The notes beneath the pieces were generated by a model that was not told the origin of the DNA, searched no databases, and was given only the letters and a program-made list of their open reading frames with translations. Made by a program: the position numbers and the translations under genes. Source: an uncultured Candidatus Binatia bacterium (lineage in GTDB: Bacteria > Desulfobacterota > Binatia > DP-6). Taken from it: a DNA stretch of 64,000 nt. The stretch covers positions 104,744 to 168,743 of the forward strand of contig CAZUDO010000056.1 of assembly GCA_964618895.1 (NCBI GenBank), in the 5' to 3' direction. Every line of letters starts with the position of its first letter. The first letter of the stretch is position 1. Of the stretch, positions 7,306 through 12,885 are shown in pieces.

Positions 7306-8082
7306 CTAGCGGACGCGGCCTGGGGAATCAACGCGCGCTCGCGTGAGGAACGCGCGTGTCCGCAGCGGCGCGGAGGCGACGGCGCCGACGAGGCACTCGG
7401 TGACACTGGCAGCCTCCACGAGAGTGGACGGGGCCACGGCCGTGGCCCCGGCTTCCGCAAGCGGCCCGGAGACCAGACGCGCGAGTTCGCGCACGGTCGC
7501 GGCGGCGATCGGGCGCACGGATTCCTGCGGTGGAACGCATCGTCGACAGACGAGCCCGCTGCGTGTGAGCACGAGGTAGGCGGGGACAGTCCCAAGGTTC
7601 GCCCCGCATCCCCGGCAACGGTCGATCGTTGGCGCATATCCGGTCGCCGTCAGCAGGTGCAGCTCGAACGCCCGCAGCACGGGATCGAGCGAGGTGTCTC
7701 GGTCGAGCAGGGCCAGTGCGTCGTCGAGGAGCCGGAAAATCTCGCCACCGGACTCCCGGCCGAGGACCAAGCGGTCCACGAGCTCGAGAACGTAGCTGCC
7801 AGCCGCGAACCGATCCAAATCGCGCGTGAACCCGCGCAACACCGCCAGCAGCTCGCAGCGCACGAGGAAGGCGAGATCCGAGGAGGCGTGTGGACGGAAC
7901 ACCGCCCGTACCCGCACGAAGGGTTCCAGCGTTCCGGCGAAGCGCCTCCTCGAGTTCTTGGCGCCCTTCGCGATCCCGGTCACCTTGCCCTGCTGCTCGG
8001 TCAGCAGGGTGACGATCAGGTCGGACTCTCCGTAGGCCCGGGTCCTCAGGACGAAGGCCGGGCTGGTGATCTCGGTGTGCAC
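7306..8082 (-). CDS. recO: DNA repair protein RecO
   Basis: N-terminal OB-fold motif [47 protein letters not shown] and a C-terminal zinc-binding CRGCGANLG...CRRC. Confidence 0.85.
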
Positions 8083-8140
8083 GCGGCCTCGCTCAGGGGG
8101 GTACCACCCGTTTCTTTGACGTACAACCTTGACAAACGTG

Positions 8141-8176
8141 GTTTGGGTTCCTAGCTACTCGCGGCCTGCCGGACGA
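8141..8176 (+). promoter_or_regulatory. Candidate promoter for the grpE-dnaK-dnaJ operon (-35 TTGACA, 17-bp spacer, -10 TAGCTA)
   Basis: ccttgacaaacgtggtttgggttcctagctact lies about 30 bp upstream of the grpE GTG/ATG. There is no convincing CIRCE inverted repeat and no clear sigma-32 -10 box. Confidence 0.3.
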
Positions 8177-8201: not shown

Positions 8202-8789
8202 ATGGTGGATAGCGGGGATAGCACCAAAGAGCCGGGGCAGGCCGGGGGGCAGTCCTCTCCTCCCGACGACCCGGGGGCTCGGGTGTGGGAACTCGAGAAG
8301 GAGCTGGAGGCCGTACGAGACGAGGCGCGTCAGAGCCAGGAGCGCTGGTTACGCGAGCGTGCCGATCTCGAGAACGTAAAGAAGCGTGCCGCCAAGGAGC
8401 GGGTCGACACGATCCGCTACGCCAACGAGACGGTACTCCGCGATCTCCTCTCCGTCGTCGACAACCTCGAACGGGCCGTCGACCATGCGCGCGGGGGGGG
8501 GAACGGGAAGCCGCTGATCGACGGGGTCGAGCTGGTGCTCAAGTCGCTCCTCGACGTGCTCGAGCGCCACGGGGTCACGCGCTTGCAGGCCAAGGGTGCC
8601 CGCTTCGACCCGGCCCACCACGAGGCCATGGCTCACGTCGAGACCGGCGAACACGAGCCCAACTCGGTCGTCGAGGAGCACCAGCCGGGGTACCGCCTGA
8701 ACGAGCGGCTCCTCCGGCCGGCCCTGGTCAGTGTCGCGAAGGCGCCGGGCGGCACCCCCAAAGTTGCCAAGGATGGCGACCGTGATTAA
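8202..8789 (+). CDS. grpE: Nucleotide exchange factor GrpE
   Basis: Coiled-coil N-terminus; RERADLENVKKRAAKERVD and RAVDHARG motifs; a C-terminal beta-domain; located immediately upstream of dnaK. Confidence 0.9.
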   Translation: MVDSGDSTKEPGQAGGQSSPPDDPGARVWELEKELEAVRDEARQSQERWLRERADLENVKKRAAKERVDTIRYANETVLRDLLSVVDNLERAVDHARGGGNGKPLIDGVELVLKSLLDVLERHGVTRLQAKGARFDPAHHEAMAHVETGEHEPNSVVEEHQPGYRLNERLLRPALVSVAKAPGGTPKVAKDGDRD

Positions 8790-8813
8790 CAGCCGCGAAG
8801 GAGAAACCCCGGA

Positions 8814-10730
8814 ATGGCTAAAGTAATTGGAATCGACTTGGGCACGACCAACTCGTGTGTCTCAGTCATGGAGGCGGGCGATCCGGTCGTGATCACGAAC
8901 GCGGAGGGGAGTCGTATCACGCCGTCGGCGGTCGCCTTCACCGACAGCGGCGAACGCCTGGTGGGGCAGATCGCTCGGCGGCAGGCGATCACCAACCCCG
9001 AGAACACGATCTTTGCCATCAAGCGCCTGATCGGCCGCCGGTTCGACGATGTAGAGGTCCAGCGTGCGATGAAGAACCTCCCCTACAAGATCGTCCGGGC
9101 GGACAACGGCGACGCGTGGGTGGAGATCAAGGGCAAGAAGTACAGCCCCGCCGAGATCTCGGCGTTCATCCTGCAGAAGATGCGTCAGACCGCCGAGGAC
9201 CACCTCGGGGAGAAGATCACCGAAGCGGTGGTCACGGTCCCGGCGTACTTCAACGACAGCCAGCGCAATGCCACCAAAGACGCCGGCAAGATCGCCGGTC
9301 TCAACGTCCTGCGCATCATCAACGAGCCGACCGCCGCGTCGCTGGCGTACGGTCTCGACAAGAAGAAGGACGAGAAGATCGCCGTCTTCGATCTGGGCGG
9401 CGGCACGTTCGACATCTCCATCCTCGAGATCGGCGACGGCGTGTTCGAGGTGAAGGCCACCAACGGCGACACGTTCCTCGGCGGCGAGGACTTCGACCAG
9501 CATGTGATCGATTACCTGGCCGACGAGTTCAAGAAAGACCAGGGCATCGACCTGCGCAAGGATCGCATGGCGCTCCAGCGCCTCAAGGAGGCCGCCGAGA
9601 AGGCCAAATGTGAGCTCTCCAGCGCAATGGAGACCGATATCAACCTGCCCTTCGTCACCGCGGATCAGGCCGGGCCCAAGCACCTCAACATGAAGCTGAC
9701 CCGCTCGAAGCTCGAGGCGCTGTGCGCCGACCTGCTCGATCGTCTCGAGACCCCGTGTGTGACGGCCCTCAAGGACGCCGGCCTGTCGACCAAGGACATC
9801 GACGAGGTCGTCCTTGTCGGGGGCATGACGCGCATGCCGGCCGTCCAGGCGCGCGTGAAGAAGCTCTTCAACAAGGAACCCCACCGCGGAGTCAATCCCG
9901 ACGAGGTCGTGGCCATCGGGGCCTCCATTCAGGGCGCGGTCCTGAAGGGGGAAGTGAAAGACGTCCTGTTGCTCGATGTGACCCCGCTGTCGCTCGGCAT
10001 CGAAACCCTCGGTGGCGTGTTCACCAAGCTGATCGAGAAGAACACCACCATTCCCACGCGCAAGGGCCAGGTGTTCTCGACCGCGGCCGACAACCAGTCG
10101 GCGGTCACCATCCGCGTGTTCCAGGGTGAACGTGAAATGGCGGCGGATAACAAGCTCCTCGGGCAGTTCGATCTCGTGGGGATTCCTCCGGCGCCGCGGG
10201 GGATGCCCCAGGTCGAAGTCACGTTCGATATCGACGCGAATGGCATCGTCCACGTTGGGGCCAAGGACCTGGGCACCGGCAAGGAGCAGTCGATCCAGAT
10301 CACCGCCTCCAGCGGCCTCTCCAAAGACGAAGTGGACCGGATGGTGGGAGAAGCCGCCTCGCACGCCGACGATGACAAGAAACGGCGTGAAGTGGCCGAC
10401 GCGCGGAACCATCTCGACGGGCTCGTCTACCAGACCGAGAAGACGCTGGCCGAGCACGGCGGATCGCTCGATGCCGCTGCCAAGGGAGCCGTCGAGAACG
10501 CGCTGGCGGATGCGAAGAAGGCGCTCGAGTCGTCGGACGCGGCGCAGATGCGGAGCGCCACCGATACGCTGTCGCGTGCGTCCCACAAGCTCGCCGAGGC
10601 GATGTACGCCAAAGCGTCCAAGGGGCAGGCGAGCGCCGAGCCGTCCTCCGGCGATCGGGCTGGCAGCGATGGCGAGGGCAAGGGCAAAGACGATGTCGTC
10701 GAGGCGGAGTTCGAGGAAGTGAAAGACTGA
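8814..10730 (+). CDS. dnaK: Molecular chaperone DnaK (Hsp70)
   Basis: [49 protein letters not shown] and the C-terminal EEVKD tail. Confidence 0.97.
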
Positions 10731-10783
10731 GCGGCAACGGAGCGTCGGTTCGTTGCGCGCGCATGACGCACGGAGTAGAGGAG

Positions 10784-10814
10784 CCCTCACCCGCATGGCA
10801 GGTGGGGGCTTTTT
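10784..10814 (+). terminator. Hairpin plus U-tract between dnaK and dnaJ; it also sequesters the dnaJ Shine-Dalgarno sequence (attenuator or RNA-thermometer candidate)
   Basis: CCCTCACC-cgcatggca-GGTGGGGG (8-bp stem with one G-U wobble) is followed by cTTTTT. The GGTGGGGG arm is the only plausible RBS for the dnaJ ATG at 10821. Confidence 0.45.
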
Positions 10815-10820
10815 CGTCCC

Positions 10821-11933
10821 ATGAAGCGCGACTACTATCAGGTGCTCGAAGTGGCGCGGGGCGCTACCGATGATGAGATCAAGAAAGCTTATCGTCAGCT
10901 CGCGATCAAGTGGCATCCCGACAAGAACCCCGACAATCGACACGAAGCCGAGGAGCGCTTCAAGGAGCTGAGCGAGGCGTATCAGGTTCTATCGGATTCC
11001 GAGCGGCGCGCGATGTACGATCGCTTTGGGCACGCCGCGTTCGAGCAGGGCGGCCCCGGTGCCGGGTTCGACTTCACGGCCGGGTTCGAAGATATCATCG
11101 GCGATCTCTTCGGCGACTTCTTCGGGACGGGGCGAACGCGGGGTGGGCGACCGCGCGCGCGGCGCGGGCAAGACCTGCGCTACGAGCTCGAGGTCACTTT
11201 CGAAGAGGCGGCCTTCGGATGCGAGAAAACGCTCACCATCCCGCAGCTTGCGCCCTGCCACACGTGTGAGGGGCGTGGGGCCAAGCCGGGCACGGCGCCG
11301 CGCACCTGTCCGCAGTGCCGTGGCTCCGGCCAGGTCCGATTCCAACAGGGGTTCTTCTCGATCGCCAAGACGTGCGGACACTGCAACGGTCAGGGGACGA
11401 TCATCGCCAACCCCTGTCCCACCTGTGGGGGTTCCGGGGCGGAACGTCGGGATCACCAACTGAACCTCAAGATCCCACCTGGCGTGGACACGGGCTCGCG
11501 GCTCAAGCTCCGAGGCGAGGGTGAGGCGGGAACGGGTGGAGGGCCCGGAGGCGACCTCTACGTCGTCCTTCAGGTGCGCGAGCATCCGTTGTTCACGCGC
11601 GATGGCACCGACATCGTGTGCGAGGTCCCGGTCAGGTTCGTGGCTGCCGCGCTGGGGACGGAGATCGATGTGCCCACGCTCGACGGTCCCGCCAAGGTCA
11701 AGGTTCCGGCGGGTACGCAGTCCGGGCAGATATTCAAGCTGAAGGGCCGCGGGGTTCCGGAGCTCAGCGGATATGGCCGGGGGGATGAGCTGGTGCGGAT
11801 CGTGGTCGAGACCCCGCGCAAGCTCTCGGCCCGCCAGCGCGAGCTGTTGGAAGAGTTCGCCCGTATCTCCGGTGAAGAGGTGCACCCCCTCTCGAAGAGC
11901 TTTCTCGAGAAGGTGAAGTCGATGTTGGGTTAG
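10821..11933 (+). CDS. dnaJ: Molecular chaperone DnaJ (Hsp40)
   Basis: J-domain with HPDKNP; a G/F-rich region; four CxxCxGxG zinc-finger repeats ([32 protein letters not shown]). Confidence 0.95.
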
Positions 11934-11934
11934 C

Positions 11935-12885
11935 GTGCGGCGCCTCCGCGACCTCGGGGAGCATGCCTGGCTACGGCGGCTCATCCGGCGCCTGGGGGCG
12001 CTTCCACGAGATCGCGTTCTGGTCGGTCCCGGGGACGATGCGGCGGTGCTGCGGTGTGGTCGAGGCCCCGTCCTGATCACCACGGATACGCTGGTCGAGG
12101 ACGTGCATTTCCGACGCAGGTGGCTGACGCCGGCGGCGCTCGGCGAGCGGCTGTTCGGCGCCAACGCGAGCGACGTGGCGGCCATGGGGGGCGTACCGAC
12201 GTTCGCGGTGCTGGCGGTCGAGGCTCCCCGGTCCACCAGCGTCGCGGATCTGGATGCTCTCGTGCTGGGGTTCGCTCGCGCCGCACGCCGCGCCGGCGCG
12301 CACCTGGTCGGGGGCAACGTGACATCGGGCCGCCGGCTCGCCGTCACCGCCACGCTGCTCGGGGAGGCCCGCGGCCAGATTGTCCGGCGGAGCGGGGCTC
12401 GGGCGGGTGACGTGGTCGTCGTCACCGGAACCTTGGGTGGCGCGGGATTCGCGGTGCGGCGGTTGCGGGCCGGCCGTCCCGCACGTCTGGCGCCGCCGCC
12501 TCTCCGCCTGCGCGCGGCGCAGGTGCTTGCCCGCGTCGCCCATGCGATGATCGACGTGAGTGACGGTGTGGTCCAGGACCTCGGCCATCTCTGCCGGGCG
12601 AGCGGTGTGGCCGCCGAACTGGACCTACCGCGTCTCCCGGTGGCACTGCGGTGTCGGCGTGCGCTCGGCAGCCGCGCGGCTCGCTTCGCGGCAACCGCCG
12701 GAGAGGACTACGAGCTCCTGGCGGCGGTTCCCCCGTCGGCGTTGCGATACCTGGCGCGTCAGCGGATGGGCTGTCGCGTAACTCCCATCGGCCGCGTCGT
12801 GGTGGGGCGGCCGGAGGTCCGCCTCCTCGATCGCGCCGGTCGGCGCGTGCGGGTCGGCCGAGCCGGGTACGACCACTTCCGATGA
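11935..12885 (+). CDS. thiL: Thiamine-monophosphate kinase
   Basis: GDDAAVL, DTLVEDVHF, GANASDVAAMGG and DVSDG motifs of the AIR-synthase-related ThiL family; GTG start 1 bp after the dnaJ stop. Confidence 0.8.
   Translation: MRRLRDLGEHAWLRRLIRRLGALPRDRVLVGPGDDAAVLRCGRGPVLITTDTLVEDVHFRRRWLTPAALGERLFGANASDVAAMGGVPTFAVLAVEAPRSTSVADLDALVLGFARAARRAGAHLVGGNVTSGRRLAVTATLLGEARGQIVRRSGARAGDVVVVTGTLGGAGFAVRRLRAGRPARLAPPPLRLRAAQVLARVAHAMIDVSDGVVQDLGHLCRASGVAAELDLPRLPVALRCRRALGSRAARFAATAGEDYELLAAVPPSALRYLARQRMGCRVTPIGRVVVGRPEVRLLDRAGRRVRVGRAGYDHFR

Follow-up and report, generated by a model that had tools for sequence, protein, structure and literature searches.

DnaK works with sub-stoichiometric amounts of DnaJ, and bacteria therefore need unequal expression of two genes that are adjacent and co-transcribed. 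Intercistronic stem-loops that stabilise mRNA are known from the puf operon of Rhodobacter and, in the form of a REP sequence, from malE-malF of E. coli. For the E. coli dnaK-dnaJ spacer, the part of PMC5406781 that cites Bardwell 1986 describes an imperfect terminator with differential expression of dnaK and dnaJ. The major E. coli transcript is a dnaK-only RNA of 2.1 kb that ends in the spacer, and dnaJ levels are RNase III-dependent (PMC3082872). In Salmonella, dnaK and dnaJ mRNAs are uncoupled in a condition-dependent manner, and the authors see no canonical terminator there (PMC12077118). The hairpin of E. coli and Salmonella is associated with more dnaK message than dnaJ message (PMC5406781, PMC3082872, PMC12077118).

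Here, we analysed the dnaK-dnaJ spacer in a 64-kb stretch of DNA from an uncultured Candidatus Binatia bacterium (64,000 nucleotides; the whole stretch is called the window in the following). The spacer contains a hairpin that is real, conserved and structurally supported, and that is a lineage-specific example of a well-known type of element.

The dnaK-dnaJ locus

The window has a GC content of 70%, and the best genome hit is a Binatia MAG. On the plus strand, grpE (8202-8789; Pfam GrpE, E=2e-50) is the first gene of a co-directional cluster that continues with dnaK, dnaJ and an AIRS-domain gene; recO lies upstream on the minus strand (7306-8082; identified from ORF calls, translations and Pfam). 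The order recO(-)|grpE-dnaK-dnaJ recurs in related contigs. DnaJ shares 72-91% identity with its closest relatives, and NCBI labels one of these as Candidatus Binatia. The coding sequence of dnaK (8814-10730, plus strand) encodes 638 aa and ends with a TGA at 10728-10730. Its Shine-Dalgarno (SD) sequence AAGGAG is conserved in 8 loci at a distance of 6-10 nt 5' of the ATG (10 nt in the window). A spacer of 90 nt (10731-10820; homologous spacers have 48-107 nt) separates dnaK from dnaJ (10821-11933, plus strand), which encodes 370 aa and begins with MKRDYYQVL. The dnaJ start at the ATG at 10821 is secure, because there is no in-frame start codon after the preceding in-frame TAG at 10776 and because MKRDYY is the canonical N-terminus of DnaJ proteins. 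AIRS- and AIRC-domain genes follow directly 3' of dnaJ (Pfam), and in the window as well as in related contigs the AIRS, AIRC and ABC1-type genes downstream of dnaJ are tightly packed and co-directional.

A stable hairpin precedes the dnaJ start codon

The preliminary description of this DNA had reported a hairpin with a 9-nt loop, a UUUUU run after the stem and the dnaJ ATG 12 nt downstream of the 3' arm, and all of this is directly visible in the sequence. The core stem consists of a 5' arm, GCCCUCACC (10783-10791, plus strand; supported by sequence, fold and covariation), and a 3' arm, GGUGGGGGC (10801-10809, plus strand; supported by sequence and fold), the latter being the originally proposed SD sequence of dnaJ. 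C10784-C10791 (CCCTCACC) pairs with G10801-G10808 (GGTGGGGG) with a single wobble (U10787.G10805), and the pair G10783-C10809 closes the stem, resulting in a core of 9 bp with eight G-C or A-U pairs and one G.U pair. The 9-nt loop, CGCAUGGCA (10792-10800, plus strand), has an internal mini-stem of two base pairs (GC/GC). In ViennaRNA predictions, G10778-A10782 (GAGGA, the 5' strand of a lower stem) pairs with U10810-U10814 by A-U and G.U pairs, which extends the helix to 14 bp. The predicted dG37 is -18.7 kcal/mol for the core and -24.7 kcal/mol for the extended stem, and a fold of 110 nt around the spacer has a z of -2.3 in comparison to dinucleotide shuffles. The stem begins 48 nt past the dnaK TGA and is on the transcribed strand. 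Its lower 5' strand is the 3' half of a conserved purine block, GAGTAGAGGAG (10773-10783, plus strand), which includes both TAGAGG (10776-81) and the SD-like AGGAG (10779-83). On the 3' side, 12 nt separate G10808 from the dnaJ ATG; here, the U-run (10810-10814) is followed by a pyrimidine-rich tail, UUUUUCGUCCC, that reaches up to the ATG (10810-10820 in total, plus strand) and contains no SD sequence.

The pattern of the two arms is unique in the 64-kb window (0.02 occurrences expected). The window has six runs of at least five T on both strands together, and only the run at 10810-14 abuts a strong hairpin behind a gene of the same strand. A terminator scan of the window also flags the dnaK-dnaJ hairpin, and no other gene in the 64 kb is followed by a canonical terminator-like site on its own strand. 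The T-run test is stricter than a scan for hairpins with T-tails under lax tail rules, which returned 168 mostly intragenic sites in this 70% GC window and is uninformative. There was no Rfam match at gathering level in the entire window, and no match to Rfam 15 at E<=10, thermometer families included, between 10650 and 10900. An origin from a REP/BIME-like repeat or from a mobile element was rejected, as the hairpin is present in a single copy in 64 kb and elsewhere only at the orthologous position of related loci. We also rejected translational coupling via a 9-codon upstream ORF, which starts with an ATG at 10795 in the loop, has AGGAG 11 nt upstream and a TGA that overlaps the dnaJ ATG: neither ATG nor frame is conserved in any relative and the ORF has likely arisen by chance.

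Conservation and covariation of the hairpin in Binatia

We gathered 30 dnaK-dnaJ spacers of the Binatia type from two genomes (L001, L002), 13 metagenome contigs (L081-L091, L093, L094) and 15 exact-protein matches (L161-L176). Of these, 23 distinct spacers carry the hairpin, and it is the only consensus structure of the spacer predicted by RNAalifold. A second hairpin directly after the dnaK stop codon (10734-10756) is specific to the window and not part of the consensus structure, and manual checks for an alternative CCCGC/GCGGG pairing within the spacer found no consistent pairing; both were discarded.

The alignment (A2) was evaluated with a structure of 15 pairs: 92.4% of all cells are standard pairs, versus 41-59% in controls with the 3' partners displaced by one to three columns. 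In six of the 15 pairs both partners have changed (19 cells), and 500 column shuffles produced no alignment as good. Examples are CACC/GGUG, which is CGCC/GGCG in L168 and CAUC/GAUG in L091, and the compensatory change of CCCUC/GAGGG to CCAUC/GAUGG in L174; at the base of the stem, A-U alternates with G-C (11 versus 9 sequences). The loops of the relatives vary in sequence and length but keep their self-complementarity, and the distance between the conserved arms therefore ranges from 8 to 11 or more nt. Among the non-Watson-Crick cells, G.U outnumbers A.C by 29 to 7, which indicates that pairing is selected on the plus-strand RNA rather than on a DNA duplex or on an antisense RNA.

These data also bear on the question whether the inverted repeat could act as DNA, as a CIRCE/HrcA- or HAIR/HspR-like binding site of a dimeric heat-shock repressor. 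The well conserved arms (CCCTCACC / GGTGAGGG), the setting in a heat-shock operon and the perfect 36-bp palindrome of L082 would all suit an operator. However, variable arm spacing around a centre that is itself self-complementary, compensatory changes within the arms and the strand asymmetry of the wobble pairs make a DNA operator very improbable. Moreover, outside this spacer the arm motif is absent from the window and from the other related stretches compared, no hrcA was found next to the operon by Pfam or gene order in the window and related contigs, and we know of no resemblance of the arms to the CIRCE or HAIR consensus.

Not all Binatia-type spacers have the hairpin: it is absent, apparently by deletion, from L088, from L163-165 (a protein found on 22 contigs) and from L176, which has a spacer of just 21 nt. 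The hairpin is thus dispensable in several lineages.

The sequence downstream of the stem

In the window, the stem is followed by UUUUU, with six T within the first 8 nt. In the 23 spacers with hairpin, the 8 nt after the core stem contain a median of four T (about one expected) and on average 6.6 pyrimidines, compared to 12% T in the upstream spacer. At least four T are present in 15 spacers and only two or three in the remaining 8; thus, while the tail is rich in T or pyrimidines in all spacers with hairpin, about two thirds have a canonical U-tract. There are two types of tails. The first is a U-run weakly paired with the upstream purines by A-U and G.U, as in the window. The second, CUCCUC (L081, L082, L161, L162 and L167), pairs perfectly with GAGGAG and results in helices of 17-18 bp with a predicted dG down to -44 kcal/mol.

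Judged by its sequence, the site in the window looks like a canonical intrinsic terminator. Its proposed role as a partial terminator that sets the ratio of dnaK to dnaJ remains plausible and fits a conserved sense-strand hairpin that follows the dnaK stop codon at about 50 nt and has a T-rich tail, the likeness to E. coli and the presence of hairpins in other bacteria; the second half of the same proposal, a heat-labile helix that occludes the SD sequence, does not withstand the data presented below. The tail alignment indicates that the hairpin is better conserved than the U-tract. As the U-tract is not conserved and the CUCCUC tails merely lengthen the helix, termination cannot explain everything. 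Protection of the 3' end or processing by an RNase would fit the CUCCUC lineages better, and the tails of these lineages suggest that protection or processing may be at least as important as termination. Given the densely packed co-directional genes after dnaJ, termination would have to be leaky, or a promoter would have to be present downstream of or inside the element.

The hairpin is too stable for an RNA thermometer

If the hairpin were an RNA thermometer, its 3' arm would be the SD sequence of dnaJ and would be set free for translation by melting on heat shock. In favour of this reading, dnaJ belongs to the heat-shock genes, no purine-rich stretch other than the 3' arm lies within 20 nt of its ATG, and relatives have GAGG in this arm. 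Folds of 10731-10850 were predicted over a range of 20 to 95 C. The predicted pairing probability of the 3' arm is at least 0.999 between 20 and 50 C and still 0.92 at 90 C; the core has a dG of -17.0 kcal/mol at 42 C and is predicted to melt only above 90 C. The comparison of 30 and 42 C that the preliminary description had recommended therefore shows a fully paired arm and no opening of the core. Only the lower stem of 5 bp frays at physiological temperatures, with predicted pair probabilities of 0.68-0.98 at 30 C and 0.35-0.96 at 42 C, and other lineages have a stable GC duplex in its place.

The sequence of the arm does not suit a thermometer either. The 3' arm of the window (GGUGGGGG) lacks any GGAG, GAGG or AGGA tetramer, and no SD tetramer was found within 30 nt of the dnaJ ATG of the window; hence, the earlier statement that the arm is the only purine-rich ribosome-binding site of dnaJ is correct in that no other purine-rich sequence lies within 20 nt, but the arm contains no canonical SD tetramer. 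GAGG is also missing from the arm in L081, L161 and L167, and in L174 it was lost to GAUGG by the compensatory change, indicating selection on pairing and not on an SD sequence. Where relatives do have GAGG in the arm, its distance to the ATG is 10-24 nt (median about 14). An arm that is paired at all physiological temperatures would leave dnaJ untranslatable were it a required SD sequence, and we conclude that it is not a functional one; the AUG itself and the positions -11 to -1 are outside the core helix. Together with the existence of lineages without hairpin (L088, L163-165, L176) and with the lack of any Rfam match to ROSE, fourU or another thermometer at E<=10, this renders the proposed ROSE- or fourU-like occlusion of the SD sequence highly unlikely, and we advise against annotating the hairpin as an RNA thermometer.

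A conserved purine block and a promoter-like motif abut the stem

Another SD-like sequence, AGGAG at 10779-83, lies on the other side of the hairpin. Phage T4 gene 38 has a split ribosome-binding site, with the SD sequence brought near the AUG across a looped-out hairpin. In the same way, AGGAG could be the SD sequence of dnaJ: looping out the core (27 nt) would place it at an effective distance of 11 nt from the AUG. In 18 of the 23 spacers, an SD core of 4-5 nt immediately precedes the stem (L001 and L166 have a tetramer only further upstream); L088 and L163, which have no hairpin, have such a core too. Long spacings appear to be tolerated in this genome: the dnaK SD sequence is 10 nt from its ATG, and SD tetramers of the genes in the window peak at -16 to -8. 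Furthermore, the lower-stem pairs of the window weaken between 30 and 42 C and the predicted probability of GAGGAG being unpaired rises from 0.08 to 0.16; here, the weak GAGGA:UUUUU stem might act as an additional fourU-like gate with a mild dependence on temperature. Against a split site, the effective spacing ranges from 8 to 22 nt among relatives, L001, L090/L094, L093 and L174 have no SD core, and the five lineages with the perfect GAGGAG:CUCCUC duplex would have their SD sequence permanently locked. The linear spacing in the variants without hairpin is 12-16 nt, and L176 has no SD sequence at all. On balance, we regard a split ribosome-binding site as distinctly unlikely.

The purine block is also part of a larger conserved motif, TTGC-N19/20-TAGAGG, that abuts the hairpin and has a promoter-like geometry. 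It includes a conserved TTGC block (10753-10756, plus strand, defined by alignment), which resembles a -35 element as TTGCGC (10753-10758). Within the window, TTGC-N19/20-TAGAG has no second occurrence, and 15 Binatia loci have it at the corresponding position; in L088 and L163 the purine block is kept as TAGGAG. Two readings of the parts of this motif were discarded: TTGC is no -12 element of a sigma-54 promoter, as there is no GG -24 element upstream, and the conserved TAG (10776-78) is neither a second stop codon nor the end of a frameshift product, as its frame to dnaK and dnaJ differs between relatives.

TTGCGN (10753-58) and TAGAGG (10776-81), separated by 17-18 nt, could form an internal promoter that overlaps the hairpin and drives dnaJ and the downstream housekeeping genes, while transcripts from the grpE promoter would be attenuated at the hairpin. 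Transcription would start about 7 nt downstream of TAGAGG, within the 5' arm, and the resulting transcripts could not form the terminator and would thus escape. Two conserved blocks at this spacing, separated by a variable sequence without conserved pairing, speak for a promoter; the motif is unique to the dnaK-dnaJ spacer and persists in variants without hairpin (TTGCGA-17-TAGGAG in L088, TTGCGC-18-TAGGAG in L163), the non-heat-shock genes directly after dnaJ need basal transcription, and the putative grpE promoter reads TTGACA-17-TAGCTA. However, each hexamer matches the sigma-70 consensus, which may not be the consensus of this phylum, at three of six positions only. The last base of the -10 element is G or A instead of the near-invariant T (-7), and a promoter consensus scan did not call TTGC...TAGAGG. 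Three spacers with the hairpin, L002, L166 (TAGAGG part) and L168, lack the motif, and TAGAGGAG could instead be conserved as a strand of the lower stem or as an SD sequence. An internal promoter at this position therefore appears rather unlikely.

In a broader form, the hairpin would be one half of a composite control point, with the abutting TTGC-N17/18-TAGAGG(AG) being either an internal promoter or the real SD sequence of dnaJ; this we consider improbable. If the promoter were true, heat-shock transcription would stop after dnaK and basal transcription would feed dnaJ and the downstream housekeeping genes. If the SD sequence were true, it would act across the looped-out hairpin, and lineages with a U-run would gain a fourU-like temperature gate via GAGGA:UUUUU. 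Should transcriptomes of Binatia become available, this motif would be a concrete target for mapping a promoter or a ribosome-binding site.

A model for unequal expression of dnaK and dnaJ

We favour, as the probable explanation, an intercistronic attenuator that combines a partial intrinsic terminator, a 3'-end-protecting hairpin and weak, SD-less initiation at dnaJ, and that sets DnaK above DnaJ constitutively. From the features of the RNA described above we infer termination and 3'-end protection. Once RNA polymerase has passed the dnaK stop codon, the GC-rich stem (core 10783-10809, extended 10778-10814) would form, and stem and U-run together would cause a fraction of the polymerases to terminate. 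In transcripts that end at the stem or are trimmed back to it, the 3' hairpin would block 3'-exonucleases, and by this protection in addition to termination the dnaK message is proposed to outlast and outnumber the dnaJ message. Read-through transcripts would have a pyrimidine-rich dnaJ leader of 11 nt with no accessible SD sequence at a proper distance; the lack of a usable SD sequence would result in weak translation of dnaJ in comparison to dnaK with its conserved AAGGAG. The net effect would be a constitutive excess of DnaK over DnaJ that involves no temperature sensing.

Comparison with known systems

To place the element, we examined about 90 distinct dnaK-dnaJ spacers, including Geobacter-like bacteria, Bdellovibrionota, Clostridia and Dehalococcoidia, and scored the 66 spacers from outside the Binatia-type clade. 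All but one of these (65/66) have a hairpin, in 59 of the 65 cases with -15 kcal/mol or stronger, and several visibly have a U-tract; none is related in sequence to the hairpin of the window. Since unrelated strong hairpins are present in the spacer of most other sampled lineages, the element is an ordinary one.

The similarities to fourU and ROSE thermometers are limited to the location at a heat-shock gene and to the U-run of the window, which pairs with GAGGA in a lower helix predicted to fray over 30-45 C. In contrast to these thermometers, the window has a core helix that does not melt, being too stable by about 10 kcal/mol; its paired purine motif lies 38 nt 5' of the AUG, and relatives have CUCCUC in place of the U-run. 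As noted, Rfam returned no match. The stem-loops of puf and malE-malF, too, are very stable hairpins just after a gene whose product is needed in excess, and they do not require a U-tract, matching the relatives with CUCCUC tails. Unlike the malE-malF REP sequence, the element of the window is not repeated but unique in the window and the related loci.

A parallel exists in the tpke11 region of E. coli and Salmonella, where the hairpin is annotated as an sRNA. It has the same position, in a dnaK-dnaJ spacer of 85-90 nt, and the same features: a strong GC-rich hairpin, an imperfect U/pyrimidine tail and a dnaJ gene whose sole SD-like sequence is a distant G-run. In E. coli, the spacer forms a hairpin of 17 bp with CAUUCAUCU as its U-poor tail; the SD-like sequence is a GGGG at a distance of 13 nt from the AUG. 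The distance from hairpin to ATG is about 30 nt in E. coli versus 11 nt in the window, and the U-run of the window is the better one. There is no similarity at the level of sequence or covariance model: the Rfam model of tpke11 (RF02031) scores 69.6 bits for E. coli, which served as positive control, but finds no match in the window even at E<=10. The relation between the two elements is thus one of analogy and not of homology, probably with independent origins. Binatia, an uncultivated soil phylum, would accordingly achieve unequal expression by a conserved, lineage-specific hairpin, located where unrelated hairpins are found in E. coli and in most of the other lineages sampled; this would be a modest instance of convergence in the design of operons.

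Variation and conserved sequences in the dnaK-dnaJ spacer

Hairpin-less or shortened variants of the dnaK-dnaJ spacer are found in three related Binatia-type loci (L088:2946-3000, L163:2937-3000 and L176:1788-1808): either the hairpin is deleted, leaving GAGTAGGAG-CCCTC-tail-ATG, or the entire spacer is only 21 nt long (L176:1788-1808). These loci would be natural controls, of use in any functional test. Other relatives (L081, L082, L161, L162 and L167; in each the site is about 50 nt upstream of the dnaJ ATG) have CUCCUC in place of the U-run, and this sequence forms a perfect duplex with GAGGAG, resulting in an uninterrupted helix of 17-18 bp that may be a substrate of the RNase III type.

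Directly 5' of the hairpin is the motif TTGC-(19-20 nt)-TAGAGG (window 10753-10781), which is conserved in at least 15 Binatia spacers as well as in hairpin-less variants and is confined to the dnaK-dnaJ spacer. Judged from the sequence, its geometry is promoter-like, though the hexamers are weak.

A uORF of nine codons (MAGGGFFVP followed by a stop codon; window 10795-10824) starts within the hairpin loop; its start is preceded by AGGAG at a distance of 11 nt and its TGA overlaps the dnaJ ATG (ATGA). Since the relatives share neither its ATG nor its frame, this uORF is probably a chance occurrence. On the - strand, an antisense ORF of 693 amino acids (window 8862-10943) spans dnaK and the spacer; as a gene it is spurious and typical of high-GC DNA.

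Genes downstream of dnaJ

An AIRS-domain gene (11935-12885) lies one base after the end of dnaJ (11933) and is co-directional with it. A gap of 152 nt follows, and then an ORF of 109 aa, an AIRC-domain gene and an ORF of 180 aa, which abut or overlap each other and are all co-directional with dnaJ and the AIRS-domain gene. From this tight co-directional run of genes it follows that any terminator upstream of dnaJ must be leaky, or bypassed via a downstream promoter.

Sequences within and upstream of grpE

The 3' end of grpE carries the conserved sequence CTTGCCAAGG...CCGTG(A/G)TTAA (window 8760-8790 and orthologous sites), immediately before the dnaK SD; since it is inside the grpE coding sequence, the conservation may be at the protein level.

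Upstream of grpE, CAACCTTGACAAAC-N-GGTTTGGGTTCCTAGCTAC (window 8125-8160) is conserved in seven loci. The region contains a perfect TTGACA (8129-34), a spacer of 17 nt and TAGCTA (8152-57), and neither a CIRCE element nor hrcA was seen near it. It is likely the main heat-shock promoter, and is also similar to CTTG-N17/18-CYTATNT, the sigma-32 pattern of alpha-proteobacteria.
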